From Escherichia coli (GTDB taxonomy: Bacteria > Pseudomonadota > Gammaproteobacteria > Enterobacterales > Enterobacteriaceae): a DNA stretch of 64,000 nt. The notes beneath the pieces are model-generated. The model had not been told where the DNA came from. It worked only from the letters and a program-made list of their open reading frames with translations, and ran no database searches. Position numbers and translations under genes: made by a program. The stretch lies in the NCBI RefSeq assembly GCF_003018235.1, contig NZ_CP027437.1; one strand, 5' to 3'. Position 1 is the first letter of the stretch. Every line of letters begins with the position of its first letter. Shown here one piece after another: positions 1,734 through 58,120 of this stretch.

Positions 1734-1763
1734 TGATCCTACCCACGTAATGTGGACACGGCC

Positions 1764-2618
1764 CTAAGCGAGATTATGGTTTTCAAATTGTTCCGGGCTG
1801 AGACCGCCACAGGCACTGTGACGACGCCAGCGATTGTAATCACTCTCGATATAATTAAACACCGTTGCCCGCATTATTTCCCGGCTGCTAAAGCGTTCCC
1901 CGTGGATACATTCCACCTTCAGCGAATGAAAGAAGCTTTCCACACAGGCATTGTCATAACAGTAGCCTTTCGCACTCATACTGCCACGCAGGTTGTGTCG
2001 CTTCAGCATTGCCTGATAATCCCCTGAACAGTATTGACCACCACGGTCCGTATGAACAATGACGTTTTCCGGGCGTCTTCTCCGCCACAACGCCATTTGC
2101 AGTGCATCACAGGCCAGTTGTGCTGTCATTCGCGGTGACATCGACCAGCCAATGACGGCGCGTGACCACAGGTCGATGACTACTGCGAGATACAACCAGC
2201 CCTCATCGGTACGCAAGTACGTGATGTCACCCGCCCACTTCTGGTTCGGGCCACTGGCGCTGAAGTCCTGCTCCAGCAGATTCTCCAATACGGGCAGGCC
2301 ATGTGCACGGTAGCTGACCGGGCTGAACTTCCGGCTGGCTTTCGCCCGCAGCCCCTGACGACGCAGGCTGGCGGCAATGGTTTTAATATTGAACTCCGGC
2401 AGTTCGTCAGCAAGGCGGGGAGCACCGTATCGCTGCTTTGCCTCAAAGAATGCCTTATGGACAGCGGCATCGCAGGTGAGCCGAAACTGTTGGCGCAGGC
2501 TCATCTGGTGACGACGCCTGAGCCAGACATACCAGCCGCTGCGGGCAACCCGAAGTACACGACACATCGCTTTGATGCTGAACTCTGCCCGATGATTTTC
2601 GATGAAGACATACTTCAT
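1764..2618 (-). CDS. insF: IS3 transposase OrfB (integrase/DDE catalytic part)
   Basis: 284-aa [25 protein letters not shown]... typical IS3 OrfB; overlaps orfA as expected for frameshift-fused OrfAB. Confidence 0.9.
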
Positions 2619-2914
2619 TTCAGGCGCTTCGCGAAGTATGTCGCGGCCTTTTGGAGGATGGCCAGTTCCTCAGCCTGCTCCGCCAGTTGTCGTTTAAGGC
2701 GGACATTTTCAGCGGCCAGTTCGCTTTCGCGCTCTGACGAACTCATTTGTTGCTGCTGTTTACTGCGCCAGGCATAAAGCTGAGATTCATACAGGCTGAG
2801 TTCACGGGCTGCGGCGGCCACACCGATGCGTTCAGCGAGTTTCAGGGCTTCGTTACGAAATTCAGGCGTATGTTGTTTACGGGGCTTCTTGCTGATTGAT
2901 ACTGGTTTTGTCAT
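2615..2914 (-). CDS. insE: IS3 transposase OrfA (HTH DNA-binding part)
   Basis: 99-aa [34 protein letters not shown]... matches IS3 OrfA. Confidence 0.9.
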
Positions 2915-2977
2915 GAGTCACCTCTGGTTGAGAGTTTACTCACTTAGTCCTGTGTCCACTATTGGTGGGTAAGATCA

Positions 2978-3074
2978 ACATTCCATCAGGAACTGCGCTG
3001 CCGCTCAAAGTCACGTTATGTGTACCCGATCCAGTTAGTGCGCCGGATGGATAATCTGTAGCTGCAAAACTCAT
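2978..3074 (-). pseudogene. vgrG: vgrG 5' fragment (codons 1-32) separated from the rest by IS3
   Basis: ATG at 3072-3074 (reverse strand) with AGGA Shine-Dalgarno; MSFAATDYPSGALTGSGTHNVTLSGSAVPDGM. Removing IS3 and one ACA copy joins it in frame to [16 protein letters not shown]... at 1731. Confidence 0.7.
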
Positions 3075-3295
3075 AATTAATCCTTTTAACTAGAAATGGA
3101 TAAGTGCTAATAAGAAATCTTACAGAGAATAAAATATGCAATATATTCGTAGCTGGCATAAAACATCTCAATACTTATGCGTGCTACTGAAGATACTATC
3201 AACCATATATGCCTTGAAGAATGCACCGTCATGTTAACCTGGTGGAAACATTCACCTAAAGTACATTAATAAAACTAATAAAATTATTTAATTTG

Positions 3296-3652
3296 TTATT
3301 TGATATGATTATCATCAAGTCTTAAAATACGTTCTCCGGTTCTAATTATGTTAAAACCATAGTATTCTTTTTTACTTTCGGAAGAGAGCATATATTTCCC
3401 GATATACATAACATCTGAAGATAGCTCACTTATATCAATACATACGGGTTCGAACTGACCTGTCACTCTTTTCAACTTTATTGCATTGCCATATTTACCT
3501 TCATATAAAACATAATTTGAAATAATATTCCCATCGTCTGGTTTTGAACAAATCTGTCCGTCTTGCAAATATACACTACCGGGTAACAATGGGCGAACAT
3601 AATCACCAACAGTGCATCCCGACAAAAAGAAAAACAAAAAGAATCTCTTCAT
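3296..3652 (-). CDS. small lipoprotein of unknown function (candidate immunity/inhibitor partner)
   Basis: 118-aa ORF with signal peptide and lipobox MKRFFLFFFLSGC; start codon overlaps stop of upstream gene (ATGA, 3649-3652); AT-rich codon usage. Confidence 0.6.
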   Translation of the reverse strand: MKRFFLFFFLSGCTVGDYVRPLLPGSVYLQDGQICSKPDDGNIISNYVLYEGKYGNAIKLKRVTGQFEPVCIDISELSSDVMYIGKYMLSSESKKEYYGFNIIRTGERILRLDDNHIK

Positions 3653-4179
3653 ATGACACCCGCAGGAAATAAATTAAGCACCTTTTTGTATTTTTCCGAT
3701 AGAGTGTTCACTGATTCAGTTGTATCACCTACATAGTTAACATTTGCCAAATCAGCCACCAGTCCATAGTTAATTAATAGCCAATAATCAGCAACTATAG
3801 ATGCTTGTTGTTCCATGGAATAAGAAGAAATTGACTGTAAATTAAGATCGTAATGATAATTTGCCGCCCAAGAAAATAAACCACGCAACTTAACTGCATA
3901 CCCTTTCTGATATTGCCAAACATGCATCATTTCATGAATAAACAAGTGAGAAGCACCTGCTACTGTTTCACGATCACCAGGCATTGCTTGCGATGAATAA
4001 TCTGAACTATAAACAGCATCAGGATAATACATTTCCCCGTTTGGGGTCATCGCTGTTCTTTCCCCTTGACCAGGCAAATATTTTTCATTGTGGATCCATA
4101 CCTTGCTATAATCAATTGTATTCTCAAAAATCGATCTGGCCAATGTTAATTCACCAGATGTCATTCTCCTTAATGACAT
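3649..4179 (-). CDS. zincin-like metallopeptidase-domain protein with HExxHxxQ motif (DUF4157-like)
   Basis: HEMMHVWQ encoded at 3922-3936. N-terminal LARSIFENTIDYSKVWIH...AMTPNG pattern resembles DUF4157. ATG at 4177-4179 is preceded by AGGGGA; six-frame track extends to a GTG at 4218. Confidence 0.55.
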   Translation of the reverse strand: MSLRRMTSGELTLARSIFENTIDYSKVWIHNEKYLPGQGERTAMTPNGEMYYPDAVYSSDYSSQAMPGDRETVAGASHLFIHEMMHVWQYQKGYAVKLRGLFSWAANYHYDLNLQSISSYSMEQQASIVADYWLLINYGLVADLANVNYVGDTTESVNTLSEKYKKVLNLFPAGVI

Positions 4180-5116
4180 ATCCTTTCCCCTGGAAATAAT
4201 ATCTTTCAGATAAAACACAAACGCCCTTTGATGTTCAATATTCCCACTTTATACAGTATTGATGACATCATATTCATAGAAAATAAAATCAAAGCAAGTT
4301 ATCAACGTTTCCCGTTATGATTTCTTAACATTAATTCTCAGCATTTTTATTAATCTATCTTCAATATCAATAACCGATGCAAATGATTACGCAGCTAACA
4401 TAATTCTCATCAATTGATTAATGTCTGTAAACGCTACCGCCCCACCCTGATATCTTAATCTGCACATAGCAATCTTAACGTTATGCCCCATACATTAGTA
4501 ATGTAAATTAAGAATTCGGAATATATCAAATTCACTTCATAAATTAATATCGGGAATGATATACACATTAATTATAATGAAGTAATGTTTTAAGAGTTGT
4601 AATGACCATGGAACAGGATTAATTCCAGAAGCTCCTGTTGGGCAATAGCGCGTTTATCATCCTACATGCCTCTTACATTTTTTAGCCTTTTCTTTAACGT
4701 CAGCAATTGGCTCATTTAATCAGCAATTGTATTGGTATTTGGCGTATTACCCCTGAAACCCGTCATGTGCTAGCACCTCACTATTCAATGAGCCAACCAC
4801 GCCAGTGTCCACTGCAACCACTGGCGTTCAGAGCGACGAACGAGTGGCGCAAGAGTAAGACTGCCGTCGGGCATCATCAAACCAATAGTGGTTGTTTCCG
4901 TCAAAATTTCATCAGGTTGCTATTTTGTTGCCGGCCGCCTTTATCCCCACATATTTATAGCGGGATTATTTTGCATCGTTACACGATAAAAGGTAGGATT
5001 CTGCGCCGACAGTTATACCCATAAAGAATAATGGTGAATCTTGTCATCGCCAGGATGAATAAACATTGTTCATGGCAACTTATATGACTTTTTCATTAAA
5101 GCAATCAGGGAGAGCA

Positions 5117-14055: not shown

Positions 14056-14399
14056 CAAGATCATCTCATACTCTCCAGGTTTACAACATTATCCTTAATA
14101 TTTACTTCTTTTTGCTGACATCTACATTGAAATAAGTAGAAAACATCCCCCTACTGCCGTCTATACAGACAGCTTACTGATTCAAAGGGAACCTTGTTTT
14201 CACATTTTGCTATCATCAATACTTTAGACGCGCGGGAGTCTATAAATGCTTTATACTTTCAGGGAATAAAGTAAATATAAAAAGATGGCGTAAATTATAT
14301 GCATGGCAGGATGATTGCGACCTCCTTGATGACGCTGTCCCATTGAAATTGCAAACCCCGCACTGGTTATCTTGCCCATTTATCATGCAGAACAGACAA

Positions 14400-15209
14400 T
14401 TATAGGTCTCTGAATATCTCAGAAAGATTGAATTTTTTATAGTCCATCTCTTGAATATTTCCATTTGATATCAATCGATTCATCTCTTCAACAAAATAAT
14501 TTATATCATCACATTTGTTATTATCCGGAAGATATGAGTAATTATAATTCCACCACTTTATTCTCAACAATTCATCAATAACATTTGAATCAAATCTAAA
14601 TCTGATTATTTTTGCAGGAACTCCAGCAACTATGGCATATGGGGGCACATCTTTGGTAACAACAGAATTGGCAGCAATAACAGCACCATCACCTATTGCG
14701 ATGCCACCTTTCAATACAACATCATTTCCTATCCAGACATCATTTCCTATAATCGGATTTTCAGGTTTGGTAATGAATGGTTTCAATGTCCAGCTACGTT
14801 CAAACTCACTCTTAGCAAACTTATCAAATTCACCGTTATAAGTCATCATGTGAGTAGTAAAACGATTCAAAGGATGATTTCCACCCATTATTTTTACATT
14901 TGATGCAATACTACAAAATCGACCTATATGTATATTCCCTGTAAAATGACAGGTCGGGAATGAAAAAGCGCCGACACTGGAGAAATTTTTTACAGGCATT
15001 GTTGAATATTCTTCAGCAATAACATTATCTTCAATTGTTATCTTGTCACCTTTTGAGAAAAGAAATAAATTCCTTTCTTTATACGACTTCTTCCCCTTAT
15101 GATTTAAAAAGATTTTATTATCCATACAAAACTCAAAGTGTTTTTTCGTCCACCTGAAGGTAAGGGTTTTATTTTTATCTTCCGTGAATTTATACAATTG
15201 AACTTTCAT
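14400..15209 (-). CDS. xenobiotic acetyltransferase (XAT) family hexapeptide-repeat acetyltransferase, Vat/CatB-like
   Basis: 269-aa ORF with IGRFCSIA...MGGNH and IGNDVWIGNDVVLKGGIAIGDGAVIAANSVVTKDVPPYAIVAGVPAKIIRFRFDSNVIDELLRIKWWNY, closely resembling streptogramin A acetyltransferases; AT-rich gene. Confidence 0.7.
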   Translation of the reverse strand: MKVQLYKFTEDKNKTLTFRWTKKHFEFCMDNKIFLNHKGKKSYKERNLFLFSKGDKITIEDNVIAEEYSTMPVKNFSSVGAFSFPTCHFTGNIHIGRFCSIASNVKIMGGNHPLNRFTTHMMTYNGEFDKFAKSEFERSWTLKPFITKPENPIIGNDVWIGNDVVLKGGIAIGDGAVIAANSVVTKDVPPYAIVAGVPAKIIRFRFDSNVIDELLRIKWWNYNYSYLPDNNKCDDINYFVEEMNRLISNGNIQEMDYKKFNLSEIFRDL

Positions 15210-15431
15210 TGTTATTACTTCTACTTATAAATTATTAGGTTAATAACGATACTCTAAAGCCTTATGCGAATCAACTATGACAGGATGAAAAATCACCAAC
15301 ATACATTTAGATCATAATAACTGCCTAATTTTTCCGCTAGTTATTAATGTAATCATTCTGATACTTAATCACCATTACACTCAGAACCTAAAACGATAGT
15401 GGCCGCCCTATAACAGCCACTAACATTTAAC

Positions 15432-27526: not shown

Positions 27527-27534
27527 TTAAAAAA

Positions 27535-29127: not shown

Positions 29128-30116
29128 TCTTTGTCCTCTGCTTTCATTAAAACGGCGCGCTCGGTTCTGACTAACAATTTTCCCTGCATCAGAAGCGCAA
29201 AAGTACGGATGAGCAGTATTGCAATAATAAAATTGGTAAAGATAAACAGCGGCACCGCCAGCGTATGGAAAAATCCATTATCGCTGCCACTCCCCAGATG
29301 CAAACCGGTGGTTGCCAGTGCAGATACGCCGAACGAGAAACTCCAGAATGAAGCATTAAATGGCTGGGAGAGATACCATGGCATCAGACGTAGCATAAAC
29401 AGCAGTTGCAGCAGTCCATAACCGAAAAGCATTTTCGCCAGCGTGTCACCCTCGCCGCCGTTGACGCTCAGCCAGGCACTACAGGCCACCAGTGCAGGAG
29501 CGAGCTGAATGCCGAGTGAGGTCCGCAGTGCCGTGGGTAATTCTCCCGAACTGCGCAGACGCTGCAAGATCACAGGTTCAAGGCTTAGCCATGAGAAAAC
29601 GCCTGCGCCTAAAAACACCAGACCTGCGTCGGTGTAGCCCAACGCACCACAGGCCATTGCGCTGATAAAGTTGTTGGCAACTGTCGGCAGATACAGTCCA
29701 GGCGTGGTAGCTTCTTCAGGGTGAGATCCGCGCCATAATCCCGCAGTTTGCCATGCGGCATAAGCCAGTTGCACCACGACACCAAAACTGAACAGGCACA
29801 CCGCCAGTGGACGAAACCACGGAACAAAACCAATCGCCACCAGCATCGTCGTTGCCGGAAACAAACTCACAAAACTGCTCAGCACTGGATGGCGCACTTC
29901 CGCCAGCACGCTATGCGGAAAGCGTATGAGTCGGGTAATAAATGCGCTAGTTAATAATCCCCAGATGATCATCGCCAGAATCACCAGCCCATCCCCTAAC
30001 CAGTGGCTGACCTGCCAAACCTGGCTGGCATAGCGCCAGGCAAATCCCATCCCTATCGTCCCCAACACAATACCAAAGTAGCCTGCCGGCAAATTGAGCA
30101 CTTTATCGCTCTGCAT
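29124..30116 (-). CDS. tehA: tellurite resistance/dicarboxylate-type membrane protein
   Basis: 330 aa from ATG at 30116 ([30 protein letters not shown]...); overlaps tehB start. Confidence 0.9.
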
Positions 30117-30239
30117 CTTCTTACTCATTTTGTTTAATTTATAAAGTATATTTGAAATGCATTTTATGGAATTTTCTCGAGCATAGCCAGAGCCGCAGAA
30201 TTTGCTACGGTTATAGTAAGTCACCTGTGGGAAAACGCT

Positions 30240-31220
30240 ATGCGCAAATATCGTCTAAGTGAAGAACAGCGAGCCTTTAGTTATCAGGAAGATGGCACTA
30301 AAAAAAGTGTGTTATTACGGCAGATTATCGCCATTAGCGATTTTAACGATGTGATAGCAGGAACCGCTGGCGGCTGGATCGATCGCGAAACGGTGTTAGC
30401 ACAGGAAGGAAATTGCTGGATTTACGATCAGAATGCTATTGCGTTCGGCGGAACGGTGATTTCCGGTAATACGCGTATCACCGGCACCAGCGTTCTTTGG
30501 GGAGAGGTTTACGCAACGGATAACGTCTGGATCGATAATAGTGAAATCAGCCAGGATGCATATATAAGTGACAGCGTCACCATTCGTGACTCATTAGTTT
30601 GTGGTCAATGTAGAATATTTGGTCACGCCTTAATTGATCAACATTCTATGATCGTCGCCGCACAAGGCTTAACGCCCGACCATCAACTCCTGCTACAAAT
30701 TTATGATCGCGCAAGGGTTAGCGCCTCGCGTATTGTTCACCAGGCACAAATTTATGGCGATGCCGTCGTCCGGTATGCTTTTATTGAACATCGCGCCGAA
30801 GTTTTTGATTTTGCCAGCGTTGAAGGTAATGAAGAGAACAACGTCTGGCTATGCGATTGCGCTAAAGTCTACGGTCACGCGCAGGTGAAAGCTGGCATAG
30901 AAGAAGATGCCATTCCGACGATTCATTACAGTTCGCAGGTGGCGGAATATGCCATTGTGGAAGGTAATTGTGTGTTAAAACATCATGTCTTGATTGGCGG
31001 AAATGCCGTGGTACGTGGCGGACCGATTCTGCTCGACGAGCACGTTGTAATACAAGGTGAGAGCCGTATTACAGGTGCGGTGATAATTGAAAAACATGTG
31101 GAGTTAACCGACCACGCCGTCGTTGAAGCCTTTGATGGCGACACGGTTCATGTCCGTGGTCCAAAAGTCATTAACGGCGAGGAGCGCATTACGCGAACGC
31201 CGCTGGCAGGGTTATTGTGA
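30240..31220 (+). CDS. ydcK: hexapeptide-repeat protein YdcK
   Basis: 326-aa [25 protein letters not shown]... with left-handed beta-helix repeats. Confidence 0.85.
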
Positions 31221-31751
31221 ATCGATAATACGCGCGTATAAGTTCACATCATCATAGGCATCATTCAGGAACTCAGCCTGTTTCAGACAACCTTCAAGGA
31301 TAAAACCATTGCGCAAGGCGACCTGGTTGCTTTGCACATTGTCCACCCGACATTTGATCACGAAGCGTCTAAGTTCACCAGACTGGGCGTAATGATGAAT
31401 CAATGCCTGCAGCGCCTGAGAAATGATCCCCTGCCCCTGATGAGATTCGTCCAGCCAGTAGCCGATTTCAGCGGTTTTATTCAGTGGTTCAATACGATTA
31501 AACGAGATAACGCCGATAAGTTCATCTTCTTTGAAAATCATGAACATTTTGGCATATCCGCGTTGATGCAACATTACATTGCCCTGCACCGTTTTTCGCG
31601 TGTCCTCTTCACTTTGAACAAACTGCGGCCAGTTTAGCGACTGCTGTAACCAGGTTTTATTTTTACAGATTAACTGATAAAGAGGTGTGACGTGATTTTC
31701 TGCAACAGCATGTAATTCAAGTGATTCGCTTACTTTTATCGTTTCGGTCAT
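31212..31751 (-). CDS. rimL: ribosomal protein L7/L12-serine N-acetyltransferase
   Basis: 179 aa from ATG at 31751 ([26 protein letters not shown]...). Confidence 0.85.
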
Positions 31752-31813
31752 CTTATCTCCAGTCAATCCATGCAGTTGTTAAAAAAGCCGCCTGGCTGGC
31801 GGCTTAGGAAAGT

Positions 31814-32038
31814 TTACACCTCTTTGACGCTCTCCTGCTGCAGGATTTTGAGCATCTCATCTTTTAACTGTAACTTTTGTTTTTTCATGCGGACCACTTC
31901 CGCATTATACCCTCGACCGTCGGAACCTTCCTTTCTGGCAATTTCATGATCAAGTTTATTGTGTTTATCGAACAAGGACATAAAGCGAGGATTTTCGTTT
32001 TTCAGACGGGATATTAAATCTCGATATTCTGGAAACAT
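31814..32038 (-). CDS. ydcH: small protein YdcH (DUF465)
   Basis: 74 aa from ATG at 32038 (MFPEYRDLISRLKNENPRF...). Confidence 0.8.
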   Translation of the reverse strand: MFPEYRDLISRLKNENPRFMSLFDKHNKLDHEIARKEGSDGRGYNAEVVRMKKQKLQLKDEMLKILQQESVKEV

Positions 32039-32177
32039 ACGCACTCCCTGTTAGTGGCTGACAAGGTGTATCTGAAATACACACCATCAGATTACTCATT
32101 TAACTTAGGGAAAAATGCGAGCGGGATCGTGTTTAACCAGACGGCACCTCCCGAAGAAGGTGCCGAAGAAAAAACAA

Positions 32178-43715: not shown

Positions 43716-46700
43716 TTAACCGCTAATCTGCTCCATCGCCTGCAAAATACGCTTATCTGAAATCGGATAAGGCGTACCAAGTTGTTGAGCGAAGTAACTA
43801 ACGCGCAGCTCTTCTATCATCCAGCGGATCTCTTTCACGTCTTCATCCTCACGACGTGCGGGCGGCAGTTTGTTGATCCATTGCTGCCACGCCTGCTGGA
43901 CGTTTTCGACTTTCAGCATCTGAGCACGGTCACGATGCGGATCAACCGCCAGTTTTTCCAGTCGTTTTTCAATCGCCTGCAAATAACGCAGCGTGTCGCC
44001 CAGCCGTTTAAAACCGTTGCCAGTGACAAAACCGCGATACACCAACCCGCCCATCTGCGCTTTGATGTCAGAAAGCCCCAGCGCCATAGTCATATCCACC
44101 CGCCCTTTCAGGCGTTTGTTGATATTGAAGACTGCAGTAAGGATTTGCTCGACCTGCTTCGCAATATCCACCACCGTGTCGTTCAGTTCAGCGCGGACTT
44201 TTTCATGCAGCGCAGCAAAGCCTTCTTCCGTCCAGACCGGGCCACCATTGGCGTCGATCAGTTGATCCACACCGCAGGAGATACAGTCGTCGATCAGCTC
44301 CAGCACTTTGCCATACGGGTTAAAGTACAGCCCCAGCTTGGCTTTGTTTGGCAACTTCTCATGCAAATATTTGATTGGCGAGGGAATATTCAGCAGCAGT
44401 AGACGGCGAAGACCGTTCCACATTGCCTGCTTTTGTTCCAGCGGATTATCAAACAGTTTGATCGCCACGCTGTCGCGTTCATCCACTAGCGCTGGCCACG
44501 CCTTCACTTTATAGTTGCCACGCTTCTGTTCGTAGCTTTCCGGCAGCTGACCAAAACTCCAGATATGTAAGCCGCTCTGCTCGATACCGTCATCCGCCAC
44601 CGCAGACAGCGTTTCCTGCACTTTGCCTTTCAGCGCATCTTTCAGATCTTGTAGAGAGCGCCCTTCTTTTAGCTTCTTGTTTTTGTCATCCACCACGCGG
44701 AAGGTGATTTTCAGGTGATCAGGCACCTGATCCCAGTGCCAGTCTTCGCGGTCAACGGTAACGCCGGTCATCCGCCGTAACTCGCGCTCAAGGCTGTCGA
44801 GCAACGGTAACTCCAGCGGTGTGACGCGGCCTAAAAACGCTTCGGCGTAGTTTGGCGCGGGCACAAAATTACGGCGTACCGGTTTCGGCAACGATTTAAT
44901 CAATGCGATGATCAGTTCACGACGCAGGCCGGGGATTTGCCATTCAAACCCGCTCTCTTCTACCTGATTAAGCAGCGGCAGCGGAATATGCACGGTCACA
45001 CCGTCCGCGTCCGCGCCTGGCTCAAACTGATAGCTCAAACGCAGCTTGAGATTGCCCTGATGCCAGAAGTTCGGATAATCCAGCTTGCTGATTTTTTCCG
45101 CCCCTTCTTTGATCAACATGCTCTTTTCAAAGTTGAGCAAATCAGGCGTTTCGCGGCTGACTTTTTTCCACCAGCTGTCGAAGTGACGTGCGGAGATTAC
45201 ATCGTGGCTGATGCGCTGGTCGTAGAACTCAAACAACGTTTCGTCATCAACCAGAATATCGCGGCGACGTGATTTGTGTTCCAGCTCTTCCACTTCGGCC
45301 CGCAGTTTCAGGTTTTCACGGAAGAATGCGTGACGCGTCTGCCAGTCACCTTCCACCAGCGCGTGGCGAATAAAGAGTTCACGACATAACGCCGGATCGA
45401 TCTGGCTGTAGTTGACCTTACGCGCAGCAACAATCGGCAAACCATAAACAGTGACTTTTTCCGTTGCCATCACCGCGCCCTGCGCCCGTTCCCAGTGCGG
45501 TTCGCTGTAGGTGCATTTAATCAAATGCTGAGCAACGGGTTCTACCCATTCAGGGTCGATACGTGCCGCAATGCGCCCCCACAGGCGGCTGGTTTCTACC
45601 AGTTCCGCCACCATTACCCATTTCGGCGGCTTTTTAAATAAGCCGGAACCGGGGAAAATGGAGAAACGCGCGTTACGTGCGCCGGTATATTCTTGTTTAT
45701 CGGCATCTTTCATGCCGATATGGGAAAGCAAACCGGTCAGTAAGGCGATGTGAATTTCGCGATACTCCGCCGGTTCGCTGTTAACCGGAATGCCAAGTTC
45801 TTTCACCACCTGGCGCAACTGGGTGTAGATATCCTGCCATTCGCGCACGCGCAGATAGTTGAGATAATCGGTACGACACAGGCGACGGAAGGCGTTGGAA
45901 GAAAGCGCCTTTTGCTGCTCGCCAAGATAATTCCACAGATTTACAAACGCGAGGAAGTCGGATTCTTTGTCGTGGAAGCGGCGATGTTTTTCGTCCGATG
46001 CCTGCTGTTTATCCATCGGACGCTCGCGCGGATCCTGAATGGAGAGCGCGGACGTGATAATCATCGCCTCACGCACGCAGCCATGTTTTTGCGCTTCCAG
46101 CACCATACGCGCCAGACGAGGATCGACAGGCAATTGCGAAAGCTGGCGACCGAGCGGTGTCAGTTTATAGGCGCTGGCCTGTTCATCCGTGGTGATCGCG
46201 CCCAGCTCTTCGAGCAGACGCACGCCATCCTGGATATTACGTTTATCCGGTGCTTCGACAAATGGGAACGCGGCGATATCGCCCAACCCCAGCGCGGTCA
46301 TCTGTAAAATAACCGAGGCCAGGTTGGTACGCAGAATCTCCGGATCGGTAAACTCCGGGCGCGAGAGGAAATCGTCTTCGGAATAGAGACGAATACAGAT
46401 CCCTTCGGACACACGACCACAGCGGCCTTTACGCTGGTTGGCAGACGCCTGCGAAATGGGCTCAATCGGCAAACGCTGCACTTTGGTGCGATAGCTGTAG
46501 CGGCTGATACGCGCCGTACCTGGGTCGATAACGTATTTAATCCCCGGAACGGTCAGCGACGTTTCCGCGACGTTGGTCGCCAGCACAATGCGCCGTCCAC
46601 TGTGCGACTGGAACACGCGGTTCTGTTCGCTGTTCGAAAGCCGCGCATAAAGCGGCAAGATTTCGGTATGGCGTAAGTTCAGCTTGTTCAGCGCATCGGC

Positions 46701-47618
46701 GGTATCGCGAATTTCCCGCTCACCGCTCATAAAGATCAGAATGTCGCCGGGACTTTCCTGACTCAGTTCGTCTACGGCGTCAAAAATCGCCTGCAACTGA
46801 TCGCGCTCGGTGTCATCGGCTTCTTCAACAATCGGGCGATAGCGCACTTCCACCGGATAGGTCCGACCGGAGACTTCGATAATCGGCGCATTATTAAAGT
46901 GGCGCGAAAAGCGTTCCGGGTCGATAGTCGCGGAAGTGATAATGATTTTTAGGTCAGGACGTCGCGGCAGCAACTCTTTCAAATAGCCGAGCAGAAAATC
47001 GATATTCAGGCTACGTTCGTGCGCTTCGTCAATAATGATAGTGTCGTACTGCATCAGCAGGCGGTCTTGCTGGATCTCCGCCAGCAGGATACCGTCGGTC
47101 ATCAGCTTGACCATCGTGTTATCACTTACGTGATCGCTGAAACGCACTTTGTAACCGATGCAACCGCCCGGCTCCGTTTTCAGCTCTTCCGCAATACGGT
47201 TCGCCACCGTTCGTGCCGCCAGGCGACGCGGTTGGGTATGACCGATCAGCCCTTTAATCCCGCGCCCCAGCTCCATACAGATTTTCGGTAGCTGAGTCGT
47301 TTTACCGGAACCGGTTTCCCCGGCGACGATCACCACCTGGTGATCACGAATCGCTTCGAGAATGTCCTGCTTTTTCTGACTAACCGGTAAATTGTCAGGA
47401 TAAGTAATTTCCGGACGTGCCGCTTCACGCAGCAGGACTTTCCCTGCCGCCTGGTCAATCTCTTTCGCCATCTCCTGGAAAATGGCCTGTTGTGCATCAG
47501 GATTTTTAACCTTCTTCACACCGTGAAGACGGCGTAAAAAACGCTGTCTGTCGCGCAGCATCAGCGAATCCAGCCGCTGCTGCAAGGCCGTAAAGGTCAA
47601 TTTTTGTTGTTCTGTCAT
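43716..47618 (-). CDS. hrpA: ATP-dependent DEAH-box RNA helicase HrpA
   Basis: 1300-aa ORF with GETGSGKTTQLP Walker A and DEAH (IIIDEAHERS) motifs. Confidence 0.95.
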   Translation of the reverse strand: MTEQQKLTFTALQQRLDSLMLRDRQRFLRRLHGVKKVKNPDAQQAIFQEMAKEIDQAAGKVLLREAARPEITYPDNLPVSQKKQDILEAIRDHQVVIVAGETGSGKTTQLPKICMELGRGIKGLIGHTQPRRLAARTVANRIAEELKTEPGGCIGYKVRFSDHVSDNTMVKLMTDGILLAEIQQDRLLMQYDTIIIDEAHERSLNIDFLLGYLKELLPRRPDLKIIITSATIDPERFSRHFNNAPIIEVSGRTYPVEVRYRPIVEEADDTERDQLQAIFDAVDELSQESPGDILIFMSGEREIRDTADALNKLNLRHTEILPLYARLSNSEQNRVFQSHSGRRIVLATNVAETSLTVPGIKYVIDPGTARISRYSYRTKVQRLPIEPISQASANQRKGRCGRVSEGICIRLYSEDDFLSRPEFTDPEILRTNLASVILQMTALGLGDIAAFPFVEAPDKRNIQDGVRLLEELGAITTDEQASAYKLTPLGRQLSQLPVDPRLARMVLEAQKHGCVREAMIITSALSIQDPRERPMDKQQASDEKHRRFHDKESDFLAFVNLWNYLGEQQKALSSNAFRRLCRTDYLNYLRVREWQDIYTQLRQVVKELGIPVNSEPAEYREIHIALLTGLLSHIGMKDADKQEYTGARNARFSIFPGSGLFKKPPKWVMVAELVETSRLWGRIAARIDPEWVEPVAQHLIKCTYSEPHWERAQGAVMATEKVTVYGLPIVAARKVNYSQIDPALCRELFIRHALVEGDWQTRHAFFRENLKLRAEVEELEHKSRRRDILVDDETLFEFYDQRISHDVISARHFDSWWKKVSRETPDLLNFEKSMLIKEGAEKISKLDYPNFWHQGNLKLRLSYQFEPGADADGVTVHIPLPLLNQVEESGFEWQIPGLRRELIIALIKSLPKPVRRNFVPAPNYAEAFLGRVTPLELPLLDSLERELRRMTGVTVDREDWHWDQVPDHLKITFRVVDDKNKKLKEGRSLQDLKDALKGKVQETLSAVADDGIEQSGLHIWSFGQLPESYEQKRGNYKVKAWPALVDERDSVAIKLFDNPLEQKQAMWNGLRRLLLLNIPSPIKYLHEKLPNKAKLGLYFNPYGKVLELIDDCISCGVDQLIDANGGPVWTEEGFAALHEKVRAELNDTVVDIAKQVEQILTAVFNINKRLKGRVDMTMALGLSDIKAQMGGLVYRGFVTGNGFKRLGDTLRYLQAIEKRLEKLAVDPHRDRAQMLKVENVQQAWQQWINKLPPARREDEDVKEIRWMIEELRVSYFAQQLGTPYPISDKRILQAMEQISG

Positions 47619-47809
47619 AACGTTAGTGGGCAGTAGTCTGCCTGATTAATTTTCTTTTAAATGATAGATATAGAGTACCACATCGCGGCTTTCTATGCGT
47701 TGTTCAATAAATTCGAACATAGGCTTCGATTTATTGCGCTATCTCTGTGGCAGGATTGTGAATAAAGTGTCAACAAGCAACGGGGCATCGCCCATTCAAA
47801 CATCTATAA

Positions 47810-48424
<615 letters not shown>

Positions 48425-48438
48425 CCGGACACGATCTT

Positions 48439-48468
48439 GATGTGGACTGTAGATATTCAGTCCACATC
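48439..48468. terminator. bidirectional terminator between azoR and ynbD
   Basis: GATGTGGACTG-TAGATATT-CAGTCCACATC. Confidence 0.6.
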
Positions 48469-48477
48469 TCAATCCGC

Positions 48478-51484
<3,007 letters not shown>

Positions 51485-51556
51485 CGCTGTATTATCACTG
51501 GTGGTAAAAAAATGTTCCCCAGGGATGCGTGAATTTTACATTTTCTCTATTTTCCT

Positions 51557-52453
51557 TCAGTAACAGCAGTAGCGAATAAAATAAAAAAATACCGGAGCGG
51601 TGAAAATTAATGAGTCAATCCTGTCAAGGAGTCCGCCATGTCCTGGTAATAGTTTTCCACTATCTTTAACACCAATATCTCGTTTGATGGCTGACATCAC
51701 TACATCGCCGCAAAAACCACTAATACCAATTAACAAACCCGCTAATAATGCCTGTAATGTATCTAGCGGTGTCAGCAACGGTCCAATAATCAGTGACGCA
51801 ATCATGGTGGTGATTACGCCGCCCATCAGACCTTCCAATGTTTTTCCCGGGCTGACTTTAGGGACCACTTTTCTTCTGCCGCAGGATTTTCCCCATAAAT
51901 ACTGTGCAATATCGTTTGACTCGGTTAATGCCAAAAGAAATAACACCAGTAACGCCCCGCCCTGGATATTTGTGGTTGGCAACATTAATAACCAGGCGGC
52001 ATGACTCAAGGCGAAAACGGTCATTATCCAGCCACAAAAAATGGCGCTCACGGTATGCAGAAAACCGGAGGGGTCACCCACTAAAACTCGCCAGGTGGCT
52101 AATATCAGAAACCCAGCCAAAGGTATAAATAACAGAAACAGCTCAAAGCAATTAAAACCGATAAGCAAATAGTTAAGAGGAATACCCCAATATAACCAAC
52201 GCGGAAAATGTACAGATATAAGCGTACAATATTCTTTCAATGCCAGAAAACTTATCAGCGCAAAAAACGTCAACGTCATCCAGCGTGGACCTGAAATCAC
52301 CATTGAAAAACAAATGACGATGCCCCACCAAGTACGAATACGTAATGTAACTTCATCCCCTTTTCTCTCCGGTAACCGCCATACCAGAAAACGGTTTATC
52401 AGCGTTGCTAAAATTAACAACGCGAAAAGTGTTGCCAGAGATTTTTCCAGCAT
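51557..52453 (-). CDS. ynbB: CDP-diglyceride synthetase-like membrane protein YnbB
   Basis: 298-aa multi-TM ORF resembling CdsA. Confidence 0.8.
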   Translation of the reverse strand: MLEKSLATLFALLILATLINRFLVWRLPERKGDEVTLRIRTWWGIVICFSMVISGPRWMTLTFFALISFLALKEYCTLISVHFPRWLYWGIPLNYLLIGFNCFELFLLFIPLAGFLILATWRVLVGDPSGFLHTVSAIFCGWIMTVFALSHAAWLLMLPTTNIQGGALLVLFLLALTESNDIAQYLWGKSCGRRKVVPKVSPGKTLEGLMGGVITTMIASLIIGPLLTPLDTLQALLAGLLIGISGFCGDVVMSAIKRDIGVKDSGKLLPGHGGLLDRIDSLIFTAPVFFYFIRYCCY

Positions 52454-53064
52454 TATCTTTCAGCGCTCATAAGAAGCACACTCCGACAACGATTAATCGC
52501 AGTCCAGAGAAGCAGAATTGAAGCAATGCTCCATAAAAGATTATTCCATTGCATCCATTGTGGATAAATGGCAATGGCCAGCCCCCACAAACCAAATATT
52601 AACGCGCGATCGCTTTTGCCAAATGGACCGACATAACTACGAATACCGTTAATCGTCTGCGCGAGTAAACCGCAAAACTCGGTCAATATGGTGCAAAATA
52701 ACATGAGTATCACGAGTGATGCATTACTTTCAGGTAAAAATAAAAACGGTAAATAGAGCGCAATATCGGAAATAACATCGCCAGTCTCATTCAAAATCGC
52801 CCCAAGACGTGTTTGCTGATTGCACTCACGCGCCAACATGCCATCCAGCGCATTGAGTGCCATACGAATAAAAAGCACGATGGGCAATAGCAGAAACATG
52901 CCAGGATATGGCACCAACGCCAACAACAAACCGGTGAGAAGAGAAAGTGCCAAAGCGGCAAGTGTGATCTGATTTGCAGACACTTGCAGCTTATGAAGCC
53001 AAAACATCGTCGGCCTTAACAGCGACTGAAAGAGCAGTTTTATCTGGTAGAGCGTCATTATCAA
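52453..53064 (-). CDS. ynbA: CDP-alcohol phosphatidyltransferase-family membrane protein YnbA
   Basis: 203-aa ORF with NALDGMLAR...G...D motif region; start overlaps ynbB. Confidence 0.8.
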   Translation of the reverse strand: MIMTLYQIKLLFQSLLRPTMFWLHKLQVSANQITLAALALSLLTGLLLALVPYPGMFLLLPIVLFIRMALNALDGMLARECNQQTRLGAILNETGDVISDIALYLPFLFLPESNASLVILMLFCTILTEFCGLLAQTINGIRSYVGPFGKSDRALIFGLWGLAIAIYPQWMQWNNLLWSIASILLLWTAINRCRSVLLMSAER

Positions 53065-53228
53065 TCCTTGATAATTCTGTTTGCGCTATGGTGCATCAAT
53101 TCCCCTGACGGAGATATCGCAACACGCCGCTTCATTAAAAATTCAGAATATATCAAGGTATTGGGGACTCACCGTCAGGAATGATTATCCCCAATAAATC
53201 AAGTGGTTAAAAATTATTACGCTGTTAT

Positions 53229-55541
53229 TCAATACAACTCATCAAGTTTTCTCATCGCTTGTTCCCGTATTGCGCGCGTCTTACCGTTAAGCGCCAGCTG
53301 GCGGACTAAATCCAGTTCAGGGTTAACAAGCTCTAACGCCAGCAAAGGATCACGTTTCAGCCTCGCCTTTAATACATCAACTGGAAAACGGGGATTATTC
53401 ATCGCCACAATCCACCACTCGGGATCAATTTCTGCCGCCAGTACTGCAGGCGGTGTGTGGCGGTTATTAAGTGCGCCGAACTTGAAAAATGTGAGATTGC
53501 TTTTCGCCAGCGTACTCCACCATATACGATCCGGTTGTTTTGCCAGTACATCCAGTTGTGCTAACGCATCGGGGTCTAGTGCATAATAAACACGTAACGC
53601 TTCGTTAACCTGCGCACGAGAGCTGTTTTCCTGCCTCAGAAAAAACTTCGCCCAAATATCATTGCGTGGCATATTTTGCTGTAATTCCTTGAGGACAACA
53701 GCGGGTAAATTATCCCAACTAACTAATGCACTCTCTAAAAAGTCCCAGCCTTCCGAACGTATCAGAGAGGTGGCATTTAATAGCATCTGGTCATCAACTT
53801 CACCGTGGCTAATCAGCTCAGACAAAATCATATCAGCGCTGGTTTCATATGCTGCAGAATCTGCTTTCGGATTATTTTTTCGATGCGATAAAGCGCGATG
53901 CCAAATTTTTTGTTTCATCGCCGTACTCAGATACTGATTTTTCGCCAGATTACTCCACCCCGCAGGATCGTTGAAACGTGTCAATAACCGTTGTAAAGCA
54001 GCGTCAGAGTGCATTACCTGCATATCCCCACAGCAAAAATAGGCAGGAAATTTTTTCTCCATCTTTTTAACAAAATTAAACTGTAAGTTATCTGGCAATG
54101 CTAAAAATAACACACGTATTAGATCATCGTCATTCTCGAATTTTTGGTGTAAATATACTGCTATTTTGTCACTCTCTTGTGGCGTCATCCGCAACAATTG
54201 ACCATGGTGTTTCATCTCTGCCAGCTTTGACGCTAAGCTTGTGACAACATCGTTTGATGAATCGTTCGCCAACTGCATTGCCTGATTGTAGCTGAGTTGT
54301 CCTCCAGCACCGACCTGACGAATAGAGGAATCATCACTGCGGATATAGCCATCAATAATGGATTCGGGCAATAACCACGCATCTTTATAAAGCTCCTGAA
54401 TGATCATATCCCAATCTCTTTTCGCCAGAGTCATGACGATATCCAGAGGGAGATTTTCACGTAGCGCAAGATTCAACGGACCGACACCATCAGGTAGATG
54501 ACTCATTCGCGTCATTATTTCGACAGAGAGCGGTTCACGGTCGAGCAACCCCAGAACAACAGGCTGGTAACCCAATTGCTGATCGGTCAACTCCAGAATC
54601 TCATTGTCAGGCATATATCTCGCCATACTTTCAATCGTTTGTTCATCATTGCTATTAATAAGTTGTTTGCGTAGGTTAGCTGAAATTCCTTTAAGCCTTG
54701 GGAGAGTTCGCATTATGGCAAGATCAAATGTCGCAATGTCTCGCCCTTCAAATGCAGCAACTTTGCCTTCATCCAGCATTTGCAATTCCTGCACTAATTC
54801 AGGTGAAGGCTTAGGGCGAAACAGCGCTTCTTTTTTCATCTGATTACAGACATTCCCTGCTATGCGAATATTGCTTCGCTTAAAAATTTCTTTCAGAGCA
54901 TCTTCATCATTTATTAGGCCCCAATAATATGCATCAGGATTTATTATCGTCAGCGCTTTTTTGACATTTTCAGTGTCATTTTTGTCTCCCGCACGGACCA
55001 TGAATTCACTATTTGTCGAAGACACAACAACAGGTGCAATTATGTCATTGATAAATATCCCGCGCGCATTAATACTTCCCTTAATCGTAGACGGATTATC
55101 GTAATATGAGTCGATAAATACCAGTCCACTTGCATTTATCGAACCGGTAATTAACAGTGGTGAATCCGTAACTATATTCGTTGCCGTCACGTTACCGAGA
55201 ATAACCCATGGATTAGAAAGAGAGAAAGTGGAAATATTACCTTTGACTGTCAAATTGCCAAGAACAATCAATTTTTGATTACTCTCTATATTACCTTCTA
55301 CCACTAAATCGCCACGATGCACTTTCCAGTCCGATGCAGATAAACCGAAGGGGACAAGATTCACGCTACTGTTGATAGCTTGTTCAACTTGTTGTTTATC
55401 TTCAGCGGTAGCCGCAGAAAAAAATGGTTCAATATCAACTGCATTTGCAACACATCGAAGTTCCGCCTGTACTGGAAGACTCAGCATAAACAGGGGAAGT
55501 AAACCTATCCAGCTGCAAATCCTGGGCTTAAACATATGCAC
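53229..55541 (-). CDS. ydbD: YdbD, large secreted protein of unknown function
   Basis: 770-aa ORF with signal peptide MHMFKPRICSWIGLLPLFMLSLPVQA. Confidence 0.8.
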   Translation of the reverse strand: MHMFKPRICSWIGLLPLFMLSLPVQAELRCVANAVDIEPFFSAATAEDKQQVEQAINSSVNLVPFGLSASDWKVHRGDLVVEGNIESNQKLIVLGNLTVKGNISTFSLSNPWVILGNVTATNIVTDSPLLITGSINASGLVFIDSYYDNPSTIKGSINARGIFINDIIAPVVVSSTNSEFMVRAGDKNDTENVKKALTIINPDAYYWGLINDEDALKEIFKRSNIRIAGNVCNQMKKEALFRPKPSPELVQELQMLDEGKVAAFEGRDIATFDLAIMRTLPRLKGISANLRKQLINSNDEQTIESMARYMPDNEILELTDQQLGYQPVVLGLLDREPLSVEIMTRMSHLPDGVGPLNLALRENLPLDIVMTLAKRDWDMIIQELYKDAWLLPESIIDGYIRSDDSSIRQVGAGGQLSYNQAMQLANDSSNDVVTSLASKLAEMKHHGQLLRMTPQESDKIAVYLHQKFENDDDLIRVLFLALPDNLQFNFVKKMEKKFPAYFCCGDMQVMHSDAALQRLLTRFNDPAGWSNLAKNQYLSTAMKQKIWHRALSHRKNNPKADSAAYETSADMILSELISHGEVDDQMLLNATSLIRSEGWDFLESALVSWDNLPAVVLKELQQNMPRNDIWAKFFLRQENSSRAQVNEALRVYYALDPDALAQLDVLAKQPDRIWWSTLAKSNLTFFKFGALNNRHTPPAVLAAEIDPEWWIVAMNNPRFPVDVLKARLKRDPLLALELVNPELDLVRQLALNGKTRAIREQAMRKLDELY

Positions 55542-55598
55542 TCCATGCCATTAAAAAAGAAACAAAAGGGAAATGCATCTTTCCCTTTTGTATATTCG

Positions 55599-56459
55599 TT
55601 ATTCTCGCGAAATACCATCCAACGTAGACAACACTTCCTCAGAAAGATGCAATTTTTCAGCAGCCATATTCTCCCGTAAATGCGCAACAGAAGATGTCCC
55701 TGGAATCAGCAAAATATTCGGTGAACGTTGTAACAGCCACGCCAGCGCCACCTGCATTGGTGTTGCGCCCAGGCTCGTAGCAACATCGGAAAGTGTGGAC
55801 GATTGCAGCGGCGTAAAGCCCCCGAGCGGGAAGAAGGGCACGTAGGCAATGCCATCGCGGGCCAAATCATCAATCATTGCGTCATCAGCACGATGAGCAA
55901 TGTTGTATTCGTTCTGCACACAGACGATTTCGGTAATCTTACGCGCCTCTGCAACCTGCGTCGGTGTGACGTTGCTCAGGCCAATATGTTTTACCAGGCC
56001 TTGTTGTTTCATCTCTGCCAGCACGGTCAGGCTGGCTTCTATCGATCCTTCCGCTGGGCCATGACCATCCCCCATCATGACGCGCAGGTTAACCACATCC
56101 AGTACGTCCAGGCCGAGATTACGTAGATTATCGTGCACCGCTTTTTGCAACTCTGCCGGAGAAAAGGCGGGCAACCAGGAAGCGTCCTCTCCACGCCGCG
56201 CACCAATTTTAGTGACAATTGTCAGGTCGTCAGAGTAAGGATAAAGCGCTTCGCGGATAATCTGATTGGTGACGTGCGGACCATAAAAGTCGCTGGTATC
56301 AATGTGATTGACGCCCAATGCCAGCGCCTCGCGCAGTACAGTTATAGCGACGTGGCGATCTCTTGGGGGGCCAAAAACCCCAGGACCTGCCAGTTGCATC
56401 GCGCCATAACCAAGACGGTTAACGGATTTTGTACCGAGAGTAAATGTATTGCTGCTCAT
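55599..56459 (-). CDS. ydbC: aldo-keto reductase YdbC
   Basis: 286-aa ORF MSSNTFTLGTKSVNRLGYGAMQLAGPGVFG... Confidence 0.85.
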   Translation of the reverse strand: MSSNTFTLGTKSVNRLGYGAMQLAGPGVFGPPRDRHVAITVLREALALGVNHIDTSDFYGPHVTNQIIREALYPYSDDLTIVTKIGARRGEDASWLPAFSPAELQKAVHDNLRNLGLDVLDVVNLRVMMGDGHGPAEGSIEASLTVLAEMKQQGLVKHIGLSNVTPTQVAEARKITEIVCVQNEYNIAHRADDAMIDDLARDGIAYVPFFPLGGFTPLQSSTLSDVATSLGATPMQVALAWLLQRSPNILLIPGTSSVAHLRENMAAEKLHLSEEVLSTLDGISRE

Positions 56460-56619
56460 CGCACCCTGCCCTGTAATAAAACGGATTGAGAAAAATCAGT
56501 ATAGAAACGAAAAGAGATAAATAATGCGAAGGCGTAAACAAGATTACTGGATGAGTTGCTCTATTGTCCTGAAAGACACCAAAACAAAACGCGTAAAGCG
56601 CCGCATTCGGCAATAAAAA

Positions 56620-56647
56620 AACCGCAACCTGTATCAGCGTTGCGGTT
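56620..56647. terminator. rho-independent terminator downstream of paaY
   Basis: AAAAAAA-AACCGCAAC-N10-GTTGCGGTT. Confidence 0.55.
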
Positions 56648-56690
56648 TAGGTATCACATGCTAAAAATTAGAACGTCCAGCATCAGGACG

Positions 56691-57281
56691 TTACTGTTTC
56701 GGTCGCAGATTCTCATCAAATACCAGGCGCTGCCTGCCAGGTTCAACTTCCCGCAATGGCTCGACTTGATGTAACGTCTGCTTACAGCGTGTCACCAGCA
56801 CCTGGTACTCATGCGTACCCTGCTTTTTCCATGCCAACTCCTGCTCACTGAGTTCACGAATCGCTTTCGCCGGGCTGCCGACAATCAGGTAATTAGCTGG
56901 CATTTCTGCTTTGGCTTTCACAAATGCGGAAGCGCCAACAATGCTGTTCTCGCCAATCACCGCACCGTCTATCACTACCGCGTTCATTCCCACTAATGCA
57001 TTGCGGCGGATAATGCAGCCGTGAAGGATAGCGCTATGACCAATATGTCCATCTTCTTCCACGACAGTATCCTGCTCGGGAAAACCGTGCATAACGCAAT
57101 TATCCTGAATGTTCGCGCCATCTTTCACCATGATACGACCAAAATCGCCACGCAGGCTGGCATTTGGCCCAACGTAAACGCCCTTGCCGAGAATAACATC
57201 GCCGATCAATACCGCTGTCGGATGGACAAAACTCTCTTCTGGCACAACCGGAGTCAGACCGTCTATCTGATAAATTGGCAT
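56691..57281 (-). CDS. paaY: hexapeptide-repeat thioesterase PaaY
   Basis: 196-aa [32 protein letters not shown]... with AGGAGG Shine-Dalgarno. Confidence 0.85.
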
Positions 57282-57400
57282 AACGCCTCCTGTTCAATAT
57301 TCAAGCCGCCAAAACGTTGAAAATACAGGCTTCCCAGCGCAGGCAATTCACCGACCGAGGTTTCACCTTTTTCACTAACGAACGCTAAAGCAGCAGGCGC
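57263..57400 (-). pseudogene. paaX: probable 3' remnant of paaX (upper boundary approximate)
   Basis: Minus-strand frame ending 19 nt inside the paaY start (...[23 protein letters not shown]), i.e. the position a paaX 3' end would occupy; no room upstream for a full-length gene. Identity not verified. Confidence 0.35.
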
Positions 57401-57622
57401 TACGCGCTGATAAAGTTTGCCGATAAAGGTTTGGTAGTCGCGCAATATATTCGTAACCGTCGTCTCGATTTTTGTGCAGATGCGATTCGCCATGCCGCAG
57501 ATGATGAAAAACTGGCAGGCATTGGCTTTCATTGGGGATTTTCCGACCAGAGTCATTTTTCAACGGTATTTAAGCAACGCTTTGGGATGACGCCAGGTGA
57601 GTATCGTCGTAAATTCCGCTAA
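57389..57622 (+). pseudogene. feaR: 3' remnant of an AraC-family regulator gene, probably feaR
   Basis: Plus-strand frame without an in-frame ATG encodes an AraC-type C-terminal HTH ...GFSDQSHFSTVFKQRFGMTPGEYRRKFR*; adjacent to ydbL, where feaR lies in K-12. Confidence 0.45.
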
Positions 57623-57660
57623 CTAATTAGCGTTGCATGTACAGCAACGCTAATTAGTTA
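57620..57660. terminator. 41-bp near-perfect palindrome (likely bidirectional terminator)
   Basis: TAACTAATTAGCGTTGC-ATGTACA-GCAACGCTAATTAGTTA immediately after the feaR-like stop. Confidence 0.6.
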
Positions 57661-57793
57661 AAACAGATATTTGACTATGCATTTTTCAGGGCGAAAGGCA
57701 ATTTGACAGGAATTTTTGAATATTCACCTTGTTTCCGGAAAATAGAATAATCGCCTTCTCCTGTAGCGTTATCCCGATATTGCGGTTTTGCTA

Positions 57794-58120
57794 TTAAAAT
57801 TTTCGCACCCATTTACCGTTTATCCCTTGTACATATTCCCCCGGTTTAGCCCGAGCTACGAGCTTTTGCCCGGCGAGTTTCGCGATATCATCTACCGACA
57901 CATTATTTTGCTTTGCCAGTTGTTGGTAACTCGCTTTACGTTCGGCATTAATGTCGTTTACTAATTTCTCTGTTTCAGCATCTGTTTTCAGCGCAACCAG
58001 ATAACCATAAAATGTTTCCCCTACCCGCCCCTGAGTTCTGGCTTCATCCAGAGTCAATGCCATTACATTGCTGCTTACAAGCCCAACAAGAAACGCACAA
58101 AGAAGTACTGTTTTCTTCAT
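57794..58120 (-). CDS. ydbL: YdbL (DUF1318) periplasmic protein
   Basis: 108 aa from ATG at 58120 (MKKTVLLCAFLVGLVSSNVMA...). Confidence 0.85.
   Translation of the reverse strand: MKKTVLLCAFLVGLVSSNVMALTLDEARTQGRVGETFYGYLVALKTDAETEKLVNDINAERKASYQQLAKQNNVSVDDIAKLAGQKLVARAKPGEYVQGINGKWVRKF

Follow-up and report, generated by a model that had tools for sequence, protein, structure and literature searches.

Toward one end of the window (the whole 64,000-nucleotide stretch of Escherichia coli DNA that we analysed), the genes run in the order pdxI, paaY, a remnant of paaX, a remnant of feaR, a 41-bp palindrome, ydbL, ynbE and ydbH. The window is oriented as the reverse complement of the corresponding region of K-12 MG1655, in which the order is ydbH, ynbE, ydbL, feaR, feaB, tynA, paaZ, paaA-K, paaX, paaY, ynbG, ydbA, pdxI and ydbD. 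An earlier note on this DNA, made without database searches, had named feaR, feaB, tynA, paaZ and paaABCDEFGHIJKX as the genes that occupy this position in K-12, and comparison with MG1655 shows that order to be correct. Each element that the note listed was found where it had been placed. The features of the locus, with a slash marking the breakpoint, are as follows:

50679-56676: BLAST block corresponding to K-12 1,480,000-1,474,005
56677-56689: second junction, on the other side of paaY; 13 nt separate the paaY stop region from the final ~9 nt of ydbA
56690-57414: BLAST block corresponding to K-12 1,465,062-1,464,338
56691-57281, minus strand: paaY; 196 aa with no internal stop, a thioesterase of the hexapeptide-repeat fold
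57263-57414, minus strand: 3' remnant of paaX; last 152 nt, encoding K-12 PaaX residues 268-316 plus the stop codon
57414/57415: deletion junction, ...GCGCTGATAAA/GTTTGCCGATAAAGG...; K-12 base 1,464,338 (paaX) joined to 1,446,585 (feaR)
57415-64000: BLAST block corresponding to K-12 1,446,585-1,440,000
57415-57622, plus strand: 3' remnant of feaR; last 208 nt, encoding K-12 FeaR residues 234-301 plus the stop codon
57620-57660: perfect palindrome of 41 bp; 17-nt arms, 100% complementary, around a 7-nt loop, beginning at the feaR stop codon
57794-58120, minus strand: ydbL, last gene of ydbH-ynbE-ydbL, transcribed toward the scar and paaY; the intact right flank

The paaY-ydbL interval and the missing K-12 segment

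The three BLAST blocks are colinear with K-12 MG1655 and match it over hundreds of bases with 97-98% nucleotide identity (97.5-98.1% in the ydbL flank), so that chance matching is no concern for either the remnants or the flanks. Between window positions 57414 and 57415, the whole of K-12 1,446,586-1,464,337 is absent: these 17,752 bp comprise 698 nt from the 5' end of feaR, 799 nt from the 5' end of paaX and the entire feaB, tynA, paaZ and paaABCDEFGHIJK, that is, 14 whole genes together with the 5' parts of both regulators. Of the intact feaRB-tynA-paaZABCDEFGHIJKXY cluster of MG1655 (b1384-b1400), the window retains paaY, the 3' ends of paaX and feaR, and the palindrome between feaR and ydbL; in addition to the 17,752 bp it lacks ynbG and ydbA. 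The flanks are thus colinear with a K-12 sequence that carries extra DNA between them, and the join falls inside two genes, of which only part of the coding sequence is left. On this comparison the feature is almost certainly a real and cleanly resolved deletion scar of 17.75 kb, in which paaY has been left stranded.

Both regulator genes survive as 3' ends. The short frame that ends inside the paaY start, described in the earlier note as paaX-like, is identical to K-12 PaaX 268-316 at 48 of 49 residues, and its stop codon (57263-57265) sits 19 nt within paaY, an overlap that exists in K-12 as well. The opposite-strand frame, read there as the C-terminal helix-turn-helix of an AraC-type regulator with no start codon, proved to be feaR: it matches K-12 FeaR 234-301 at all 68 residues, corresponds to the second helix-turn-helix of the AraC-type domain, and has no usable start, there being an in-frame stop 10 codons upstream and an internal TTG as the sole start-like codon. 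Neither regulator is present at full length, as the PaaX profile (NCBIfam TIGR02277) was matched at positions 244-278 of 279 only (20.8 bits against a cut-off of 264.55) and the FeaR profile (NCBIfam NF007243) at positions 236-303 of 303 only (E = 4.5e-36; 124.8 bits against a cut-off of 199). The alignment to the K-12 paaX and feaR 3' ends that the note had proposed thus places both fragments, and it sets the breakpoint at 57414/57415. Both remnants are already pseudogenes in RefSeq ("PaaX, incomplete, missing N-terminus" and "helix-turn-helix domain-containing protein, incomplete"), and the first of these names is applied to the same stretch in O169:H41, 042, ST648, CS18F, GMF054 and ETEC1738. 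A chimeric ORF of 97 aa (57263-57556, minus strand) runs from antisense feaR sequence into the frame of paaX and stops just inside the start of paaY. It has probably arisen by chance, although its transcription, if it occurred, would keep the native stop-start overlap with paaY.

Beyond the feaR remnant come the palindrome and then ydbL, again as described beforehand. The palindrome has a folding energy of -24.5 kcal/mol (z = -7.2 relative to shuffles), and we considered two roles for it, neither of which held. The deletion did not produce it: K-12 and further strains with a complete feaR carry it too, and it therefore belongs to the native spacer of the convergent genes feaR and ydbL. Nor is it an intrinsic (Rho-independent) terminator, its stem being mostly A+T-rich, with no T-run on either strand in a consensus scan. 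Searches for structured RNAs returned no Rfam family and only sub-threshold chance microRNA matches. The 17-bp stem is perfect in every strain compared, and the mirrored positions 57629 and 57651 covary: they are A/T in the window and ST648, G/C in K-12, and C/G in 042, O169:H41, CS18F, GMF054, S1-KEN-05-A and CFSAN061768. Either selection for the hairpin or a templated process (correction or mutation) within a quasi-palindrome could have given rise to this covariation.

At the second junction, the window lacks about 8.9 kb that in K-12 separates pdxI from paaY and holds ynbG and ydbA together with IS2 and IS30, and a 7-bp hairpin followed by a T-run (56672-56692) lies immediately past the paaY stop codon. 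That the loss of ydbA formed part of the fea-paa event was ruled out: the same ydbA-less junction occurs in MB19 alongside a full paa cluster, and the ydbA-less allele is hence a separate, common polymorphism. In S1-KEN-05-A, an 8.6-kb ydbA-like autotransporter gene (L003, 1-3674) is named "EntS/YbdA MFS transporter" in RefSeq, which appears to be a mix-up of YdbA and YbdA.

Several other differences from K-12 lie at a distance from the scar. Beside patD there is a 1.3-kb insertion relative to K-12 (14105-15430), within which is encoded a 269-aa hexapeptide-repeat acetyltransferase (14400-15209, minus strand) resembling the Vat/CatB xenobiotic acetyltransferases, although it scores below all curated cut-offs. 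The IS609 copy of K-12 (1,503,161-1,504,908, between ydcL and ydcO) is absent at window positions 27528-27530. Positions 1-4961 of the window have no counterpart in the K-12 regions compared and include an IS3-family element (orfA/orfB; 1764-2914, minus strand). They also encode a protein of 189 aa that has an HExxH motif (3649-4218), followed by a 118-aa lipoprotein (3296-3652; weak match to a putative T6SS immunity family), and the two look like an effector/immunity pair.

Copies of the missing genes were sought elsewhere, their discovery in the same genome having been named in advance as a finding that would speak against the deletion. When the deleted K-12 segment was compared with the 64-kb window, blastn returned nothing, and tblastx returned only patD and aldA, which are aldehyde-dehydrogenase paralogues of feaB (~40% identical). 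Among scar-bearing complete genomes, we searched with a chimeric query composed of 1 kb of the junction and 450 bp each of paaK and tynA from K-12, of which only the junction was matched in each genome; at megablast sensitivity, paaK and tynA were therefore not found elsewhere in any of the 60 best of the 258 (60/60). Judging from these relatives only, the paa and fea genes are probably absent from the remainder of this strain's genome as well.

Anatomy of the junction and origin of the deletion

In a three-way alignment, the paaX parent reads ...GCGCTGATAAA/TGTTGATAC, the feaR parent ...GTACCGAAT/GTTTGCCGAT, and the product ...GCGCTGATAAA/GTTTGCCGAT. The hexamer AATGTT is present in both parental sequences exactly at the breakpoints, and the parental breakpoint sequences are identical in K-12, MB19, CFSAN061768 and S1-KEN-05-A (i.e., in strains whose locus is intact or partly intact). 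The product is 1 nt (one T) short of a clean join through AATGTT, and the overlap in strict register is 0 bp; because the junction is shorter by this nucleotide than a clean AATGTT-mediated join, a role of the microhomology in the deletion is suggestive only. In the three-way alignments, no filler, insertion-sequence end, inverted repeat or target-site duplication was found at the junction, which thus does not have the makeup of an insertion-sequence-mediated deletion, and a single blunt join free of filler and mobile-element sequence fits one deletion event.

The following course of events would account for the scar. A single event of illegitimate recombination would have taken 17,752 bp from an ancestor with the K-12-like order ydbL-feaR-feaB-tynA-paaZ-paaA-K-paaX-paaY, with breakpoints after codon 233 of feaR and after codon 267 of paaX. 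The recombination may have taken place at or beside the microhomology, with one base dropped in the process or a 1-bp deletion coming later. Such a deletion would have destroyed both regulators, FeaR and PaaX, and removed all of the enzymes that lead from 2-phenylethylamine to phenylacetate and on to acetyl-CoA and succinyl-CoA, leaving paaY as a complete ORF without its Px promoter and without the pathway that makes its known substrate. The earlier note had likewise suggested that a single deletion removed the phenylethylamine and phenylacetate genes and orphaned paaY. The missing interval is exactly as it listed, and the join is blunt; that the change from ancestor to scar came about in a single step is something that we infer, as nested earlier deletions would leave no trace and a single event is thus not provable.

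Other accounts of the junction fare poorly. The deletion might have been mediated by an insertion sequence, or have proceeded stepwise, the mobile element having since disappeared: insertion sequences have been active in the neighbourhood (K-12 ydbA carries IS2 and IS30, and IS200-family tnpA genes lie near pdxI in CS18F and ETEC1738), and the missing junction nucleotide could be secondary. However, the junction bears none of the insertion-sequence ends, inverted repeats, target-site duplications or filler sought there, and exactly one join is common to all scar-bearing genomes examined, which makes this course of events very improbable. Weaker still is the opposite polarity, in which the window would represent an ancestral empty site and the K-12 lineage would have gained the fea-paa cluster by horizontal transfer. 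This reading can draw on PMC4951805, where the paa locus is described as heterogeneous and set amid core genes, and on the 42% of complete genomes that are without paaABC, but an empty ancestral site could not hold truncated 3' ends of feaR and paaX, and these are present with 100% and 98% protein identity, respectively, to K-12. Moreover, the locus displays three distinct truncation patterns, as independent deletions would yield. The arrangement therefore reflects a deletion, not an insertion, and we give the empty site hardly any credence. An artefact of assembly or sequencing can be set aside altogether, as the same junction is present in 258 independently assembled complete genomes and nothing speaks in its favour.

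Distribution of the scar and of other losses at the locus

Among 5,426 complete E. coli genomes, 258 (including 042 and ST648) match the 1.6-kb scar stretch from end to end, and the junction is base-for-base identical in 5-6 other genomes, which include O169:H41 Res13-Lact-PER13-34, 042, ST648, CS18F and GMF054. By annotation, the same scar is carried by ETEC1738, which is the closest complete genome over window positions 30000-50000 (99.3%); in that genome, an IS200/IS605 tnpA gene (L012, 6466-6924) is located where the window has pdxI. The junction, remnant lengths and flanks of the window recur in the pseudogene pair of E. coli 042 (EC042_RS27765 and EC042_RS08085), in ST648, in O169:H41 Res13-Lact-PER13-34 and in others. 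For these genomes, RefSeq gives the remnants as 153 and 207 nt, flanked as in the window by pdxI, paaY, ydbL, ynbE and ydbH, and these genomes differ from the window solely by point differences in the flanks (0.5-3%). The scar is thus an old allele, common to many genomes and present in existing annotation, and not an event private to this strain.

Over the 341 bp of the remnant block, pairs drawn from six scar-bearing sequences differ at 0-7 sites. CS18F (L007, 3091-4520, compared with window 56691-58120) is a mosaic: its remnants differ from those of other scar alleles at 0-4 of 341 sites, but its flanks are divergent, with differences at 19-22 of 591 sites in paaY (3.4%) and at 17-20 of 327 sites in ydbL (5.8%). 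Near-identical remnants within divergent flanks imply that either the scar or the flanks moved between backgrounds by homologous recombination. On the evidence of these alignments, the pattern indicates that the scar allele is common to several lineages, between whose backgrounds it would have been exchanged by homologous recombination.

The genes paaABC are present in 3,147 of the 5,426 complete genomes (58%). Two further deletion alleles occur at the same position:

Type 2: K-12 1,446,630-1,464,720 lost; 252 nt of feaR remain and the other breakpoint falls within paaY; 816 genomes, e.g., S1-KEN-05-A
Type 3: K-12 1,446,271-1,465,074 lost, from 64 nt past ydbL to just beyond the paaY stop; 474 genomes

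Carriers of type 3 include CFT073, Nissle 1917 and ATCC 25922. Both types share with the window the functional loss of fea, tynA and paa between the same core flanks but differ from it in their breakpoints, and only the window's allele keeps paaY whole, the gene being truncated or removed in types 2 and 3. About 730 complete genomes fall outside these classes, including O157:H7, in which ydbL is only 76% identical.

That the locus varies between strains has already been published. In the locus description of Goldstone et al. 2016 (PMC4951805), the paa locus, lying between ydbH-ynbE-ydbL and ynbC, is heterogeneous and has undergone several independent deletions; the relevant passage of PMC4578781, citing Vieira et al. 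2011, gives the paa unit as absent from intestinal pathogenic and most extraintestinal pathogenic strains; and Touchon et al. 2020 (PMC7314097), where they treat phenylacetate degradation, associate it with phylogroup B1. As far as these accounts of the locus go, its occurrence among strains follows phylogroup and pathotype (PMC4951805, PMC4578781, PMC7314097). The scar breakpoints and the orphan paaY are not given in the locus descriptions of these three papers, and within the species the scar represents one of three or more occasions on which this catabolic island was lost independently.

The orphan paaY and the consequences of the loss

The paaY gene was described beforehand as intact, and the claim stands: the 196-aa product covers the full PaaY profile (NCBIfam TIGR02287, equivalog), with residues 3-195 aligned to profile positions 1-192 of 192 at 373.3 bits against a cut-off of 319.6, and the gene is 98.3% identical to K-12 paaY at the nucleotide level. 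At residue 51 (window 57129-57131), the window encodes Met where 8 of 8 other alleles examined encode Val, a private V51M change. What has gone is the setting in which the gene normally operates. In the intact cluster, the paaXY operon is driven by Px, and the known substrate of PaaY arises as a side product at the PaaZ step (PMC9493321). Here the native Px promoter upstream of paaX is deleted along with the genes for PaaABCE, PaaG and PaaZ, and PaaY does not qualify as a functional member of the phenylacetate pathway.

We infer the expression state of paaY from the sequence that surrounds it. A consensus scan for minus-strand promoter-like sites found none between 57282 and 57800 (i.e., from ydbL to paaY), and a new paaY promoter within the feaR-antisense stretch was ruled out, there being no consensus match there. 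Read-through into paaY would nevertheless be possible, because ydbL is co-oriented and the intervening palindrome is without a T-run.

It might be supposed that selection has kept paaY for a role outside phenylacetate catabolism (e.g., as a broad acyl-CoA thioesterase), with expression by read-through from ydbH-ynbE-ydbL. The gene is intact in all seven scar-bearing sequences read, ETEC1738 too is annotated with a full-length PaaY, and the native ribosome-binding site, AGGAGG, has been kept. The co-oriented ydbL lies 512 bp upstream, with no T-run on either side of the palindrome, and various CoA derivatives can serve E. coli PaaY as substrates (PMC9493321). However, the changes in paaY among five close scar alleles (4 synonymous and 5 non-synonymous) are indistinguishable from neutrality (p = 0.13). 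Purifying selection on the orphan gene had seemed to emerge from pairwise pN/pS values of 0.1-0.3, but this signal comes almost entirely from CS18F with its recombinant flanks, and we rejected it, the low ratios being confounded by recombination. The lack of a minus-strand promoter-like site between ydbL and paaY also weighs against retention, as do types 2 and 3 (816 and 474 genomes), in which truncation or removal of paaY shows the gene to be dispensable in many lineages. Retention by selection strikes us as unlikely. A broader scenario, in which paaY is kept and expressed by read-through for a non-phenylacetate role, the scar has spread by recombination as catabolic loss was favoured in some niches, and the deletions, at least three in number, are convergent adaptive losses, seems to us more doubtful again.

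The deletion itself predicts a simple growth phenotype: scar-bearing cells should not grow on phenylacetate or 2-phenylethylamine and should have no tynA amine oxidase. The scar is also usable as a lineage marker, and it fits the published pattern of strain-variable aromatic catabolism in E. coli.
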